Made by a program: the position numbers and the translations under genes. A DNA stretch of 64,000 nucleotides from positions 2,284 to 66,283 of the forward strand of contig DASSNT010000032.1 in assembly GCA_035701285.1 (NCBI GenBank), written 5' to 3'. The number at the start of each line of letters is the position of its first letter. The stretch's first letter is position 1. Of this stretch, positions 3,519 to 34,774 are shown in pieces. Under the pieces are notes generated by a model that saw only the letters and a list, made by a program, of their open reading frames with translations, was not told where the DNA came from and did not search any database. This DNA comes from Gammaproteobacteria bacterium (GTDB lineage Bacteria; Pseudomonadota; Gammaproteobacteria; Natronospirales; DASSBR01).

Positions 3519-5309
3519 ATGGAGCACATCAGAAATTTCTCCATCATCGCCCATATCGACCACGGCAAATCCACCCTGGCGGATCGCTTTATCGAAATCT
3601 GCGGCGCCCTGACTGATCGGGAGATGGCGTCGCAAGTGCTGGATACAATGGAGCTCGAGCGCGAGCGCGGCATCACGATCAAGGCGCAGAGCGTATCGCT
3701 CGATTACGTCGCAAGGGACGGCAAGACCTATCGTCTCAATTTTATCGACACGCCCGGCCACGTCGACTTTTCCTACGAAGTCTCCCGCTCGCTCACCGCC
3801 TGCGAAGGTGCGCTGCTCGTGGTCGATGCGGCCCAGGGCGTCGAGGCGCAGAGCGTCGCCAACTGCTACACGGCGATCGACGAGGGGCTGGAAGTGGTGC
3901 CGGTGCTGAACAAGATCGATCTGCCGGCGGCCGAACCGGATCGCGTCATCGCTGAAATCGAGGATGTTATCGGCATCGAAGCGCGCGACGCGGTGCGGGT
4001 CAGCGCGAAGACGGGCGAAGGCGTGCGCGAGTTGCTCGAACAGCTCGTGCAGCGCATTCCGCCGCCGCGCGGCGATCGCGAGGCGCCGCTGCAGGCGCTG
4101 ATCATTGATTCGTGGTTCGACAAGTTCGTCGGCGTCATTTCGCTGGTGCGCGTGATGAACGGCCGTATCGAGCCGCGCCAGAAGGTGCAGGTCATGTCCA
4201 CCGGTCGCACCCACCAGGTCGATCGAGTCGGCGCCTTCCGGCCTAAGATGACCGATTCCCGGGCGCTGGAAGCCGGCGACGTCGGCTTCGTGATTGCCGG
4301 CATAAAGGAAATCGACGGCGCGCCGGTCGGCGACACGATCACCGCGGCGGACCGGCCTTGCGCCAAGCCGTGGCCGGGCTTCAAACAGGTGCAGCCGCGC
4401 GTCTTCGCCGGTCTTTTTCCGGTACGCGCCGACGACTACGAAGCGTTCCGGGAAGCGCTGCAAAAGCTGCGCCTGAACGACGCAGCGCTGTATTTCGAAC
4501 CGGAAACGTCGACGGCCCTGGGCTTCGGTTTTCGCTGCGGCTTTCTCGGCATGCTGCACATGGAGATCGTTCAGGAACGACTCGAGCGCGAGTACGAACT
4601 CGACCTGATCACGACCGCGCCGACGGTGATTTACGAGGTGCAAATCACGGCGGGCGAGACGCTTGCGGTCGACAACCCGTCGAAGCTGCCGCCGCCGAAC
4701 GAAATCGAAGAAATCCGCGAGCCGATCATCGAGGCGAACATTCTCGTGCCGCAGCAGCACCTCGGCGCCGTGATAATGCTGTGCGAAGAAAAGCGGGGCG
4801 TGCAGAAGCGGATGCACTATACCGGCTCCCAGGTGTCGCTGGTTTACGAACTGCCGTTGTCGGAAATCGTGCTGGACTTCTTCGACCGGTTGAAATCGGT
4901 CAGCCGCGGCTTCGCGTCTTTCGATTATCATTTCACTCGTTTCCAGGCCGCGCCGCTGGTGCGCCTCGACGTGATGATCAACGGCGACCGGGTGGACGCG
5001 CTGGCGATCATTGTCCACCGCGAGGAGGCCTACGCGCGCGGGCGCACGCTGACAGAGAAGATGCAGGAGATCATTCCGCGGCAGATGTTTGAAGTCGCGA
5101 TCCAGGCGGCGATCGGGAATCACATTATTGCCCGCTCGACCGTCAAGGCGCTGCGAAAAAATGTGACTGCCAAGTGTTATGGTGGCGACATCACCCGCAA
5201 GCGGAAACTGCTCGAAAAGCAGAAAGCGGGCAAGAAGCGCATGAAGCAACTGGGCTCGGTGGAAATTCCGCAGGAAGCCTTCCTGGCCGTGCTGCGCGTC
5301 GAAAAATAA
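3519..5309 (+). CDS. lepA: Elongation factor 4 (LepA)
   Basis: [31 protein letters not shown] and NKID GTPase motifs, with full-length similarity to LepA. The start was moved from the TTG at 3498 to the ATG at 3519 to match the conserved N-terminus. Confidence 0.95.
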
Positions 5310-20342: not shown

Positions 20343-21067
20343 TAGTGTGCGCGGTGTGCCTGGCGCGGCATGGCGCCCGGCAGTTCGCGGGCGGCGACGA
20401 AAGCCAGGTAGCCGATATACCCGCCGGAGATGACATCGCCGAGAAAGTGATATTCGGAGACGACTAGCGCGGCCGCGAGCGCGCAGATGGCGAGCCAGCC
20501 CAACGGCCGCAATCGCGGATAGTAGTGCATGACGGCGAACGCGAGGGCGCAGGCAATGGCCATGTGGCCGGAGGGAAAGCCGAAGAAGTTGTCGCCGGCG
20601 CTGAGCCAGCGAAACTCGAAATGATACGGGTGGTCGAGCCAGTAGCGGGTGTTGACGCGGCCGAAGACAGCCTTGAGCAGGTCTTTGGCCGTGTAGCTGA
20701 ACGGCAGGGCGGTGCCGATGACCTGCAGCAGGCAGACGAAGCGCCACCCGGCGTGCCGGCGCCGGAGGATGACGTAGCCGATCCAGCTGACGACGGTGAT
20801 AATGGCGACGAAGACGTCGAGCAGATCGGGGAACTCCATTTCGGTGACGAAGCCGGCGCCGCTTTCGCTCAGACTGCCGGCAACGAACTGGGCGAGCGGC
20901 AGGTCGATCCACGCGACCGCAATGGCAGTGGCGGCCGTAACGACGAGCAGTAGTGCCAGCATACGCGGCCAGTCGCGCAGCACCAGCGACCGCGCGTTTT
21001 CCGGGGGCGGCGGGTAGTCGGACGACCGCGTGATACTATCCAGGTGAATTCTTTCTTCAGCTTCCAT
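20336..21067 (-). CDS. PAP2-family phosphatase (membrane)
   Basis: 243 aa. Multiple TM segments. PAP2 motifs FPSGHMA and SEYHFLGDV. Confidence 0.8.
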   Translation of the reverse strand: MEAEERIHLDSITRSSDYPPPPENARSLVLRDWPRMLALLLVVTAATAIAVAWIDLPLAQFVAGSLSESGAGFVTEMEFPDLLDVFVAIITVVSWIGYVILRRRHAGWRFVCLLQVIGTALPFSYTAKDLLKAVFGRVNTRYWLDHPYHFEFRWLSAGDNFFGFPSGHMAIACALAFAVMHYYPRLRPLGWLAICALAAALVVSEYHFLGDVISGGYIGYLAFVAARELPGAMPRQAHRAHYY

Positions 21068-21896
21068 GCGCAGGATTACGATGACTGAGGTCGCCCCTTA
21101 TAAGGTGCGTGAGCCGACCGCCGAGGAAAAACGGGTGGTGGTCAGCATTCCGCATACCGGTACTTATGTTCCCGACGATATTGCGGCCAGTTTTGCGTCC
21201 GATGCGATTCGTTCGCTGCCGATGACGGACTGGCATCTGCATCATTTATACGATTTTCTTCCGCGTCTCGGTGTCACCACACTATACGCGACCTGGAGCC
21301 GATTTGTCGCCGATTTGAACCGTCCGCCAACGGACCAGCCGTTGTATCCGGGTCGCTTCGAGACCGGAATCGTGGCGGAGAAGACGTTCTGGGGCGATAC
21401 GATTTATGCGCAGGCGCCCGAGGCGGCCGAGGTCGAGCGGCGCAAGCGGCAGGTGCATGAGCCGTATCACCGGAAGCTTGCGGAGATTCTGGACGCGAAG
21501 CGGGAGAAGTTCGGACGCGTGGTGTTGATCGATGCGCACAGTGTCGCGTCGCGAGCCAGCTTGTTGCACGGGGAGTTGGAAAAAGAAATTTACCTTGGCA
21601 ATCGGGATGGCGTGACCTGCGGCGACTGGCTGATCGATCATGTTGCGGAGCGCTTTGGCGATGCCGGCCTGGCGGTGTCGTACAACGATCCGTACAAGGG
21701 CGGTTACATTACCGACCATTACGGCCGGCTGGAGGGTGTTGAGGCGTTGCAGATAGAAATGGCCGAGCGGATTTATATGGACGAGGATGATCCGCAGGCG
21801 GCGCTGTCCGATCCGAAATTCGAGAAGACGCGCGGGGTGTTGCGCGATTTGTTTGCTTCTTTGTTGTTGCAGGCGGAAGAGAAGATTCGCTCCTGA
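21066..21896 (+). CDS. hutG: N-formylglutamate amidohydrolase
   Basis: 276 aa, FGase family (VVSIPHTGTYVP, LIDAHS). The start may be the ATG at 21081. Confidence 0.85.
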   Translation: MRRITMTEVAPYKVREPTAEEKRVVVSIPHTGTYVPDDIAASFASDAIRSLPMTDWHLHHLYDFLPRLGVTTLYATWSRFVADLNRPPTDQPLYPGRFETGIVAEKTFWGDTIYAQAPEAAEVERRKRQVHEPYHRKLAEILDAKREKFGRVVLIDAHSVASRASLLHGELEKEIYLGNRDGVTCGDWLIDHVAERFGDAGLAVSYNDPYKGGYITDHYGRLEGVEALQIEMAERIYMDEDDPQAALSDPKFEKTRGVLRDLFASLLLQAEEKIRS

Positions 21897-21910
21897 CAGG
21901 TTATCGTAGG

Positions 21911-21987
21911 GGCGGCGGTGTGGGGACTTCTTTCAGGGACGGCATCCTGCCTCACACAGCCCTGAAAGAAGTCCCCACACCACCGCC
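21911..21987 (+). repeat. REP-like hairpin element, copy A (short form); probable hutG terminator or stabiliser
   Basis: 28-nt arms GGCGGCGGTGTGGGGACTTCTTTCAGGG and CCCTGAAAGAAGTCCCCACACCACCGCC (1 mismatch) around the 21-nt loop ACGGCATCCTGCCTCACACAG. The loop matches the distal part of copies B and C. Confidence 0.75.
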
Positions 21988-22004
21988 TCAGCCGTTATAG
22001 TTTT

Positions 22005-22142
22005 CCCGAATCCCCGAATCCCCGAATCCCCGAATCCCCGAATCCCCGAATCCCCGAATCCCCGAATCCCCGAATCCCGAATCCCGAATCCCGAATCCCG
22101 AATCCCGAATCCCGAATCCCGAATCCCGAATCCCGAATCCCG
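22005..22142. repeat. Tandem micro/minisatellite: 1 x CCCGAAT, 8 x CCCCGAAT, 9 x CCCGAAT, plus a partial unit
   Basis: Counted directly. Octamers occupy 22012-22075 and heptamers 22076-22138. The array ends 3 nt from the stop codon of the minus-strand methyltransferase gene. Confidence 0.95.
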
Positions 22143-22145
22143 TTC

Positions 22146-23033
22146 TTACTCCGGCTTCACGAACTTCAACGTCATCCGGTCGCTTTCGCCAATGTGGTCA
22201 AACACCGGCGGCACGATTTCTCCGATCCTCTTCATCATTTCGACCATGCGCTTGTTCTCGTCCGTTTCTTCGGGCAGCTTCGGCGCATGCGCGATGGCGC
22301 GGCTCGGCGGCAGCAGGTGAATGCTCATCGTGCGCGGATCGGCCGGGTTGGCATTGACGCGGGAGACCGCCGCCAGCTTGAAGCCGACATCCTGCGCCAG
22401 ATTGATGACGTAGGCTTCAGGCAGCCGGTGCAGCTTGCTGGCGTCTTCCGCCGCGTCGGTGTTGGGGTTGGCGCGATGCGCGACGACGCCGAAAACGCCA
22501 CCCGGCTTGAGCGCCTTGTAAGCCGCTTGAAACACTGATTTCAGCGTCCCTTCCGCTTGCCAATCGTGCGCGTTGCGGAAGGTCAGCACCATGTCGACGC
22601 TATTGGCCGGTGCGAGATCGGTCTGCTCGGGCGGCAGGAAAGATACGACCTTGACCTTGCCGTAGGCATCGGAATTGTCTTTGAGCTTCTGGCGGTAGCT
22701 TTTGGCCATTCGGCGCAGGAACTCGCTTTCGCTGTCGAGCGGCGGCGCGGCGGCGATGAGCTCGCCCCCGTCCTTGAGGTACGGGGCGAGGATTTCCGTG
22801 TACCAGCCGCCGCCCGGCTGCAGTTCGACCACCGTCATGTCCGGCTTCAGGCCGAAGAATTCGAGCGTCTGGTGCGGGTGGCGGTATTTGTCGCGCAGCT
22901 TGTGCTCGGCGCTGCGCTGCGGGCCCTGGATCACGTCGGACAGGGCGTCGGGCTGGTAGTATTGCTGTGCCGATGCGAGTTCCGGAATGAATGCCAGTGA
23001 AAGCATCGCAAGCAGGGACAGGGCAATTTTCAT
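22146..23033 (-). CDS. Class I SAM-dependent methyltransferase-fold protein with an N-terminal signal peptide
   Basis: 295 aa. Signal peptide MKIALSLLAMLSLAFIPELASA. Motif-I-like VVELQPGGGWYTEIL. Confidence 0.7.
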   Translation of the reverse strand: MKIALSLLAMLSLAFIPELASAQQYYQPDALSDVIQGPQRSAEHKLRDKYRHPHQTLEFFGLKPDMTVVELQPGGGWYTEILAPYLKDGGELIAAAPPLDSESEFLRRMAKSYRQKLKDNSDAYGKVKVVSFLPPEQTDLAPANSVDMVLTFRNAHDWQAEGTLKSVFQAAYKALKPGGVFGVVAHRANPNTDAAEDASKLHRLPEAYVINLAQDVGFKLAAVSRVNANPADPRTMSIHLLPPSRAIAHAPKLPEETDENKRMVEMMKRIGEIVPPVFDHIGESDRMTLKFVKPE

Positions 23034-23155
23034 TGCGACCTCCTTGTTGTCGAACCGGGCGATCCGGCTCGGATTTGGGCGTGGTCTATGTCAAAATACA
23101 CTGTTTTTGCCTGCCGGCAAATCCGGCGAGCCTTCTTTCGCTTGACGATAATTCA

Positions 23156-23890
23156 ATGAGCCACGAAAAGTTCAGTCTGGTCCTGCAGTCCAGCCGCATG
23201 GTGACGCCGCGCGTGCGGCAACTTGGTTTCGTTCGCGAGGACGGGCAGCCGCTAGAGTACGTCTCGGGGCAGTTCATCACGCTGCACCTGCCTTACGAGG
23301 ACATGGTGCTGCGGCGCAGCTACAGCATCGCGACGATGCCGGGCAGCGACGAGGAAATTCGCATTGCAGCGACCTACGTGCCCGACGGGCGCGCGACCAA
23401 GCTGTTGTTCGCCATGGAGCCGGGCGACAAAGTCGAGGCGACAGGGCCGTTCGGGCGCTTTGTGCTGCGGGAGGATCCGCCGGCGCGCTACATTCTGGTC
23501 GCGACCGGTACCGGCGTGTCGCCGTACCGCGCGATGCTGCCGCGTTTACGCGAGCGGCTGGAGGCCGAGGGTTGTTCGGCGCTGCTGCTGCTGGGCGTGC
23601 GCGGCCCGGACGAGCTGCTGTTTGGTGAGGATTTTCTGGAGTTTTCCGAAGGCCAGAAGGGGTTCGAGTTCGTGGCCTGTTACAGCCGCCACATGCCCGA
23701 CTCGCCGGGGCCACACGAGCGTAGCGGCTATGTGCAGAGCACGCTGCAGGAACTGGCCGTGGATCCGGAGCGGGATATCGTTTATCTGTGCGGCAACCCG
23801 GACATGATCGACGCGGCAGTCAACGATCTGAAGGAAAAGGGCTTTCAGAACCCCCGCTTGCGGCGCGAGAAATACGTCTCGTCGAACTAG
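23156..23890 (+). CDS. fpr: Ferredoxin-NADP+ reductase
   Basis: RSYSIA FAD-binding motif, GTGVSPYRAM NADP motif and a C-terminal YVSSN. The start is set at ATG 23156 (MSHEKF). Confidence 0.85.
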   Translation: MSHEKFSLVLQSSRMVTPRVRQLGFVREDGQPLEYVSGQFITLHLPYEDMVLRRSYSIATMPGSDEEIRIAATYVPDGRATKLLFAMEPGDKVEATGPFGRFVLREDPPARYILVATGTGVSPYRAMLPRLRERLEAEGCSALLLLGVRGPDELLFGEDFLEFSEGQKGFEFVACYSRHMPDSPGPHERSGYVQSTLQELAVDPERDIVYLCGNPDMIDAAVNDLKEKGFQNPRLRREKYVSSN

Positions 23891-34036: not shown

Positions 34037-34770
34037 GTGCCTCACGCGCCCGAACAGCTCGCACTCGGTGTCGGCCTGTCGTCGGGCAGCACCTTCGCGG
34101 ATTTCCATGGTGGTGCCCAGCCTGAAGCGTTGGCGCTCGCCGAACGGCTGGCGCTGCGCACCGATTATCCGATCGCGTGCCTGTGGGGGCCGCCGGAAAC
34201 CGGCAAGACGCATCTCCTTCAGGCCGCCTGTCGCGCCGCCATCGGCGCCGGCCGGACCGCCGCCTATTTGCCGCTGATTGAGTCGAGCTATCTCGACCCT
34301 GATCTGCTCAAGGGCTGGGAACGCTTCGAACTGATTTGTGTCGACGACGTGGGCCAGGTTGCGGGGCAGGTGCGCTGGGAAACAGCGCTGTTCACGCTGT
34401 TCAACATGCTGCACGAATCGGGAGGTACGCTGCTCGCGGCCGCCAGAACACCGCCGGCAGGCAGCGACTGGGCGCTGCCCGATTGGCAATCGCGGCTGGC
34501 CTGGGGGCCCGTCGTCAAGCTCACGTCGATGAGCGACGAGGCGCGGCTGGCCGTGCTGCAGCTTCGGGCCTCGCGGCGCGGGCTGAAGCTGCCGGAAGAG
34601 GTGGCGCGTTTCCTGTTGCATCACGCGCCGCGCGACATGCACTCATTGATGCAGGTGCTCGACCGGCTCGATCATGCCTCACTCGCGTTGCAGCGGCGGT
34701 TGACGATACCGTTGGTGAAGCAGGTGTTGGAACGGGATTCGGGGTTCGGGGCTCGGGATTCGAAGATCAC

Positions 34771-34774
<4 letters not shown>
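34037..34774 (+). CDS. hda: DnaA regulatory inactivator Hda
   Basis: 245 aa with a GTG start. AAA+ Walker A (GPPETGKTHLL) and DnaA-like box VII/VIII. The C-terminal 12 aa are encoded by GGGATTC-type repeats. Confidence 0.85.

Follow-up and report, generated by a model that had tools for sequence, protein, structure and literature searches.

A long two-block array of G-rich heptamer and octamer repeats downstream of a methyltransferase-like gene in a gammaproteobacterial metagenome-assembled genome

Tandem arrays of G-rich heptamers were described in Xanthomonas by Rehm et al. in 2015, with GGGAATC as the unit and (GGGANTN)n as the heterogeneous form, and numbered 186 in Xanthomonas campestris (Xcc) and 183 in X. 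axonopodis pv. citri (Xac) (PMC4692102). These repeats comprise 2-26 units with a mode of four and are in excess in non-coding DNA; 83% of those in Xcc occupy the same place in Xac, and they sit in more stable regions than controls (PMC4692102). In the family logo A4 and T6 are conserved and N5 is variable, the supplementary repeat list contains GGGATTC 65 times as well as GGGGATTC units, and the longest Xcc repeat starts with (GGGATTC)5 and continues as a mosaic of pure unit-variant blocks (PMC4692102). In vitro, (GGGAATC)4 and related oligonucleotides, units from Nostoc included, form K+-dependent G-quadruplexes (G4s) as judged by CD; the oligonucleotides assayed were (GGGAATC)4 and the Nostoc units (PMC4692102). 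RNA-seq of Xac revealed that transcripts start or stop more frequently at G4-capable repeats than at control repeats, an effect of equal size whether the transcript bears the G-rich or the C-rich strand, and a regulatory role for the heptamers could not be identified (PMC4692102). The family was reported to be absent from other gammaproteobacteria (PMC4692102).

The unit GGGATTC is also familiar from strain typing. Xanthomonas MLVA/VNTR loci include perfect tandem arrays of this identical 7-nt unit, about 5-11 copies long and variable between strains: locus 7764V17 of X. citri pv. viticola (CCCGAAT) has 10.7 copies in one genome and 5.7 in another (PMC6482255), and the VNTR loci of X. vasicola pv. 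musacearum include XVM006 (GGGATTC) and XVM036 (TCCCGAA) (PMC6459536).

Here we analyze an array of this kind in an unclassified gammaproteobacterial metagenome-assembled genome, using a window that comprises the whole 64,000-nucleotide (64-kb) stretch of DNA under study. Reading the sequence and parsing its units confirmed a real, perfect 138-base run of GGGATTC/GGGGATTC units at 22005-22142. On the minus strand the array reads (GGGATTC)10(GGGGATTC)8GGG, giving 19 G-tracts with ATTC between them. Its distal end is a single heptamer, CCCGAAT on the plus strand (22005-22011), which is followed by a block of eight CCCCGAAT octamers, GGGGATTC on the minus strand (22012-22075), and then by the heptamer block nearest the stop codon of the minus-strand gene (22076-22142), with nine full CCCGAAT units (22076-22138) and a partial CCCG. 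The tally is 18 full units plus one partial, with 19 C-tracts on the plus strand, and the octamer and heptamer blocks are each 100% pure. The coordinates, unit order and strand given in the first-pass annotation were correct to the base.

Statistically the array stands apart from the rest of the window. TRF reports it at 22004-22142 with period 7, 18.7 copies, 98% matches and a score of 206, against 58 for the runner-up in the window, and a two-unit pattern allowing up to two mismatches matched 12 times in the window compared to a shuffle mean of 0.79, with none of 100 shuffles reaching 12. As had been proposed from the first reading, the array carries the canonical intramolecular G4 motif (at least four tracts of G3 or more with loops of 1-7 nt), here in the form of 19 tracts with 4-nt loops. 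Searching the 64 kb for four G3+ tracts with N1-7 spacers returned two places, the array and 34734-34757. The array also contains 18 GATTC (GANTC) sites in its 138 nt. Rfam gave no match in or near it, the three matches in the window all being tRNAs.

The array is a further member of the described G-rich heptamer family, in a new host, and what had been presented as an unusual, isolated feature belongs instead to a described and widespread class of repeat (PMC4692102). Judged by the GGGANTN definition (positions 1-4 and 6 conserved, at least two units and at least 14 bp), it comprises 10 GGGATTC heptamers and eight octamers with a four-G tract. The operational search rule of Rehm et al. asks for at least one GGGAATC, and none occurs in 22005-22142. 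This rule makes searching easier and does not delimit the family biologically; GGGATTC and GGGAATC blocks are contiguous in Rehm repeat #014 and in two Xanthomonas loci of our own collection (L053 and L071), where the one abuts the other.

Resemblance to the Rehm heptamers extends beyond the GGGANTN fit to the mosaic of blocks, a size within the range of 2-26 units, the canonical G4 pattern and a second, short copy that overlaps the 3′ end of an ORF. The array differs from them in lacking GGGAATC, in its long pure block of 8 x GGGGATTC, in having 19 tracts against a modal four, in its host, an unclassified gammaproteobacterial metagenome-assembled genome rather than Xanthomonas, and in its lack of conservation at the orthologous locus, where Xcc and Xac share 83% of their repeats. 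The GGGGA(C/T)T heptamers treated in the Nostoc part of the same study are likewise G-rich 7-nt units in tandem, dispersed and intergenic, form G4s in vitro and share the positional bias discussed below; they differ from the window array in unit and in phylum.

The G-rich strand of the array is the sense strand of a methyltransferase-like ORF of 295 aa (22146-23033, minus strand), whose TAA lies at 22146-22148, so the earlier placement of this strand downstream of that gene is borne out by the ORF position. The array starts 4 nt after the TAA, leaving a gap of 3 nt, and lies 108 nt from the other, convergent gene. Homologues of the 295-aa ORF carry the source names class I SAM-dependent methyltransferase or predicted methyltransferase, Pfam yields a sub-threshold Methyltransf_12 match only, and an identical protein, annotated as hypothetical (tag VFL45_04130), belongs to a metagenome-assembled genome. 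Its designation as an exported methyltransferase draws on a signal-like N-terminus, the names of homologues and this sub-threshold match. The longest ORF of an FAD/NAD-binding reductase (22991-23890, plus strand) shares 43 nt with the start of the methyltransferase ORF. On the identical contig and on related ones, the called reductase product is 244 aa long, which places its true start further downstream and makes the two genes divergent with a short shared promoter region.

The convergent gene on the other side encodes an N-formylglutamate amidohydrolase of the FGase/HutG family (21066-21896, plus strand; Pfam PF05013, E 1e-64). Between the two convergent genes lies a hairpin (21911-21987) with 28-nt arms at 21911-21938 and 21960-21987 that are 96% complementary. 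We considered whether this hairpin is a dispersed REP element and rejected the idea within the window, as only its own two arms were found in 64 kb, where it is single-copy. At one orthologous locus (L123, positions 3966-4052), whose methyltransferase is 73% identical, a hairpin with similar arms occupies the same position, with matching changes on both arms. Because a similar hairpin is found at the same place there, the structure at 21911-21987 is probably a shared 3′-end structure of the FGase/methyltransferase pair, though it lacks a U-tract. No T run follows either the array or the 28-bp hairpin, so that the GC-rich stem-loop plus U-tract of an intrinsic (Rho-independent) terminator is lacking, and a scan of the minus strand across 21500-23300 found no terminator-like site. 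Nor did we find an ORF of at least 50 aa covering the array. Read-through of the TAA would append a tail beginning ERDSGFGIRDSGF, with the next stop about 210 nt on, and nothing points to such translation taking place.

The nearest orthologous methyltransferase loci, with protein identities of 83% (L122), 73% (L123) and 73% (L125), all lack the array. L122 and L123 keep the convergent methyltransferase/FGase pair, while in L125 the contig ends before the neighbouring gene is reached; a hairpin is retained after the stop codon in both L123 and L125. Since the array is absent from all three loci and both of its blocks are 100% pure, this sequence comparison indicates that the window array would be a recent, lineage-specific gain and expansion, and not a conserved functional element of the locus.

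How such an array might be structured depends on its two blocks and on the nucleic acid considered. G4Hunter assigned the octamer block a magnitude of 1.88 and the heptamer block 1.14, just below the usual cut-off of 1.2, so that the G4 potential claimed for the whole array is strong in the octamers and borderline in the heptamers. Folded as RNA, the G-rich strand (22001-22148, minus strand) reached -53.8 kcal/mol with a z-score of -2.9. When ViennaRNA was allowed to form G4s, the energy was -88.6 kcal/mol, with two G4s confined to the octamer block and the heptamer block folded as a G·U hairpin. The C-rich RNA was unstructured except for the neighbouring hairpin. As DNA, the strands folded to -1.7 (G-rich) and -0.5 kcal/mol, both less structured than shuffles, which speaks against a DNA hairpin or slipped-strand structure and rejects ordinary hairpins at the DNA level; any non-B DNA form would then need to be a G4 or an i-motif. 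GGAUUC is self-complementary in RNA by way of G·U wobbles, and the G-rich transcript is therefore predicted to form long interrupted hairpins. The canonical GGGAAUC cannot pair with itself in this way, since A would face A at the centre.

A positional rule links the array to its family more broadly. Genes around the arrays were called crudely, by ORF length and third-position GC, and the calls were checked against the window. Among 62 intergenic arrays of at least four GGGATTC units, for 49 the nearer neighbour was the gene on the 5′ side of the G-strand and for 13 it was the opposite gene (binomial p 5e-6), with median gaps of 15.5 nt on the G-strand 5′ side and 117.5 nt on the other. A stop codon within 50 nt was found on the G-strand for 29 of these arrays and on the C-strand for nine (p 0.002), and the rule was followed in 16 of 22 convergent pairs (p 0.05). 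With 3 nt on one side and 108 nt on the other of a convergent pair, the window array is a textbook case of the position described by Rehm et al.

The window contains one further site, a short degenerate array of the same repeat type (34733-34762, plus strand; GGGATTC GGGGTTC GGGGCTC GGGATTC). The site falls within the final 13 codons of an Hda-like ORF (34037-34774), on its coding strand, an overlap with the ORF 3′ end that fits the positional rule of the G-rich heptamers. The Pfam Hda_lid match stops at residue 231 of 245, so the repeat is translated as a protein tail, which looks like a C-terminal extension built from repeat DNA. Two heptamer-type sites in 64 kb come to about the density in Xcc (186 in ~5 Mb), too small a number by which to judge dispersal over the genome.

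A scan covering one genome per species with the pattern (CCCGAAT)4 found it in at least 120 stretches of species-representative genomes, in arrays of 3-19 units. Among the 80 titled matches listed, 45 were from Lysobacterales (Lysobacter, Xanthomonas, Stenotrophomonas, Luteimonas, Rhodanobacter, Aquimonas, Thermomonas, Dokdonella and others) and 12 from Acidobacteriota, the rest coming from Planctomycetota, Cyanobacteria, Bacteroidota and others. GGGATTC arrays occurred in loci of Nostoc, Fischerella and Chamaesiphon, a minority there; the GGGGA(C/T)T heptamers of Nostoc correspond to the STRR repeats of heterocystous cyanobacteria.

Adjacent pure blocks are common in these arrays, where GGGATTC blocks abut GGGAATC, GGGAGTC, GGGACTC, GGGGATT, GGGGAAT, GGGAGGC or GGGACCT blocks. 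Octamer blocks were not seen among the 120 genome loci selected by the heptamer, and in a metagenome scan 25 stretches had at least four CCCCGAAT units, making octamer arrays rarer than heptamer arrays. One of these (L147) is an independent (CCCCGAAT)5(CCCGAAT)3, with the same 8-to-7 order as in the window. The clean block switch is thus a habit of the family, most readily accounted for by mutation of a unit and its subsequent expansion through slippage. Slippage of two unit variants, the origin proposed in the first-pass annotation, is the natural reading here, as juxtaposed pure variant blocks are the rule in the family and L147 adds an independent case. A less orderly pattern was observed on a GC-rich (71%) metagenome contig (L142, 4851-5021 and 10880-10928), where more than 170 nt of 7- and 8-nt units are irregularly interleaved (87878777778787 ... 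88887787), in contrast to the clean blocks of the window; the end of that contig carries an inverted heptamer array.

Some arrays are attached to larger palindromic structures. In five loci of metagenomes Ga0116230 and Ga0209208 (L128, L138, L140, L149 and L151), (CCCCGAAT)4-5 forms one end of a dispersed palindromic element of ~150 nt, GAATGACCAAATCCGAATGAAGAATGACGAAACC ... GTTTCGTCATT ... CATTCATTCGGGGATTCGGG, whose edges are inverted C-rich and G-rich repeats. This MITE/REP-like element hints at a possible route by which arrays spread. Separately, in five loci from Rhodanobacter, Stenotrophomonas and relatives (L022, L023, L062, L076 and L091) we observed a recurring ATTCGCAAGAGC-like flank after GGGATTC arrays. 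It is joined to a GCATCGCCCGCGAGCGGGC-type palindrome arm in L022, L076 and L091, and in L022 and L076 an opposite GTAGGAGCCCGC-type arm stands upstream, placing the array between two palindrome arms.

Other systems built on short tandem repeats share features with the array and differ in what they do. As to the suggestion of a strain-variable marker, the identical unit already serves as one in Xanthomonas MLVA schemes (PMC6482255, PMC6459536), and by analogy the window locus would be unstable too; unlike the MLVA loci, its mixed 7/8-nt array would give non-integer size steps. Phase-variable contingency repeats are likewise perfect tandems subject to slipped-strand mispairing, but they have units of 1-5 nt within the ORFs or promoters of surface genes, whereas the window array has a 7/8-nt unit and stands after a stop codon and outside the promoter. 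The contingency reading offered earlier fails on this point: the array lies beyond the stop codons of both genes of a convergent pair, and length changes outside ORF and promoter cannot alter a reading frame or promoter spacing. Likeness to telomere repeats (TTTAGGG/CCCTAAA) holds formally, in the 7-nt unit, the G3 tract, the tandem arrangement and the G4 capability. The loop sequence is different and neither telomerase nor a chromosome end is involved; a telomeric repeat at the end of a linear replicon is ruled out because the array is internal, between two convergent genes, with conserved syntenic genes on both sides.

Together these results make it probable, in our judgment, that the array is a microsatellite of the G-rich heptamer family, generated by slippage and unstable in copy number, and a near-neutral passenger at this locus. 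It would have arisen recently in the space that separates the methyltransferase-like gene's stop codon from the conserved hairpin, which is older. One unit variant would have expanded first, and a one-G change in the C/G tract would have created a second that expanded as its own pure block, the two expansions yielding (GGGATTC)10(GGGGATTC)8. Judging from its position, the G-rich strand would make up the initial ~140 nt of the transcript's 3′ untranslated region, for which folding predicts strong RNA structure: G·U-wobble hairpins in the heptamers and RNA G-quadruplexes in the octamers. Such an array may at most modulate the processing or stability of the mRNA 3′ end, without being a dedicated regulatory device. 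Two properties of the family sit uneasily with this account. Its strong bias in position and orientation is hard to explain by neutral slippage alone and hints at selection or a directional origin, and the 83% sharing between Xcc and Xac, together with the placement in stable regions found by Rehm et al., fits an unstable passenger poorly.

A selected 3′-end module could also be argued, in which an RNA G4 or G·U hairpin, or a G4 in the non-template DNA, pauses RNA polymerase or blocks 3′-to-5′ exonucleases and thereby terminates or stabilizes the methyltransferase mRNA, insulating the convergent pair. Beginning 3 nt past the stop codon, the G-rich strand is in sense orientation and is the only one with strong predicted RNA structure, the minus strand lacks a consensus intrinsic terminator, the bias of position and orientation was reproduced in 62 arrays from many taxa, and Xac transcripts start or stop at G4-capable repeats more than at control repeats (PMC4692102). 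That effect was independent of strand, however, which speaks against an RNA-G4 mechanism, and no regulatory role emerged from the work of Rehm et al. (PMC4692102). At this locus, moreover, there is no U-tract, the 19 tracts far exceed the modal four units of the family, and none of the three nearest orthologous loci has the array, while the hairpin kept in L123 and L125 could serve as the 3′-end structure there. We regard a selected module here as unlikely, though as the chief rival explanation. A wider and slightly more doubtful proposal is that GGGANTC-type arrays are a selected, modular 3′-end (and 5′-proximal) element across Lysobacterales and several other phyla, with a tunable number of units. 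The orientation and distance bias of the 62 arrays is compatible with it, as is the RNA-only self-complementarity of GGAUUC. If it were true, transcripts would fold into G·U hairpins or RNA G4s after the stop codon, defining or protecting mRNA 3′ ends, and the window locus would be a freshly born and unusually long example.

Two further readings carry little weight beside the passenger microsatellite. A short-read metagenome assembler might have produced the array itself, or else its number of copies and its arrangement in blocks: the source is a metagenome-assembled genome, the copy number of 8+9 comes from one short-read assembly, and the 138 nt in total are close to read length. Tandem repeats do break assemblies, and 21 of 123 arrays in our genome loci (L001-L120) lie within 150 nt of the end of a sequence, several beginning at its first bases; copy numbers in draft genomes and metagenome-assembled genomes are therefore unreliable. 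In an independent k-mer assembly of run SRR26502134 (a Logan contig, L121), the identical gene is followed by 29 nt of array before the contig ends, which it does because the repeat is longer than the assembler's k. The comparison with an independent assembly called for at the outset thus reproduced the stop-codon junction and at least four heptamers, the total copy number being outside this contig's reach. Searching JGI metagenome contigs for the gene end and array start (TTCGTGAAGCCGGAGTAR N0-12 GGGATTCGGG) returned 0 matches and thus no second strain. The two periodic runs, of about 75 and 74 nt, fall short of the large k values usual in metagenome assemblers, so reads can span each block, as reasoned from the sequence, and there is no sign of a k-limited collapse. 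Arrays of like unit and size, and 8-to-7 switches, also recur in many isolate genomes and other assemblies, and we consider an artefact very improbable. Least credible of all is a protein-recognition cluster, with GANTC sites for a CcrM/HinfI-type adenine methyltransferase or another sequence-specific binder. The 18 GATTC sites in 138 nt, the pure blocks formed by all four GGGANTC variants (N = A, T, G, C) in related arrays and the conservation of A4 and T6, and not N5, in the Rehm logo (PMC4692102) would suit it. Among 73 co-located heptamer arrays of units other than GGGATTC, however, 23 carry GANTC and 56 keep the G3+ tract, the common sister units GGGGATT, GGGGAAT, GGGAGGC and GGGAATT have no GANTC, and no DNA methyltransferase or binding protein was identified here. 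The feature shared by co-located arrays is the G-tract and not GANTC, on which we weakly reject a GANTC-methylation cluster.

For this window the finding is of little consequence, the array adding one more case to a repeat family known since 2015 and in routine use for typing markers. For the family, the self-complementarity of the ATTC-loop variant as RNA, and not as DNA, offers a concrete and testable alternative to the G4 reading. Repeats with exactly the GGGATTC unit reach well beyond Xanthomonas to many Lysobacterales genera, Acidobacteriota, Planctomycetota and others. In this wider set of genomes too, the repeats stay close to the gene on the 5′ side of their G-strand, and since the rule extends so far, the function of the repeat is still worth testing.
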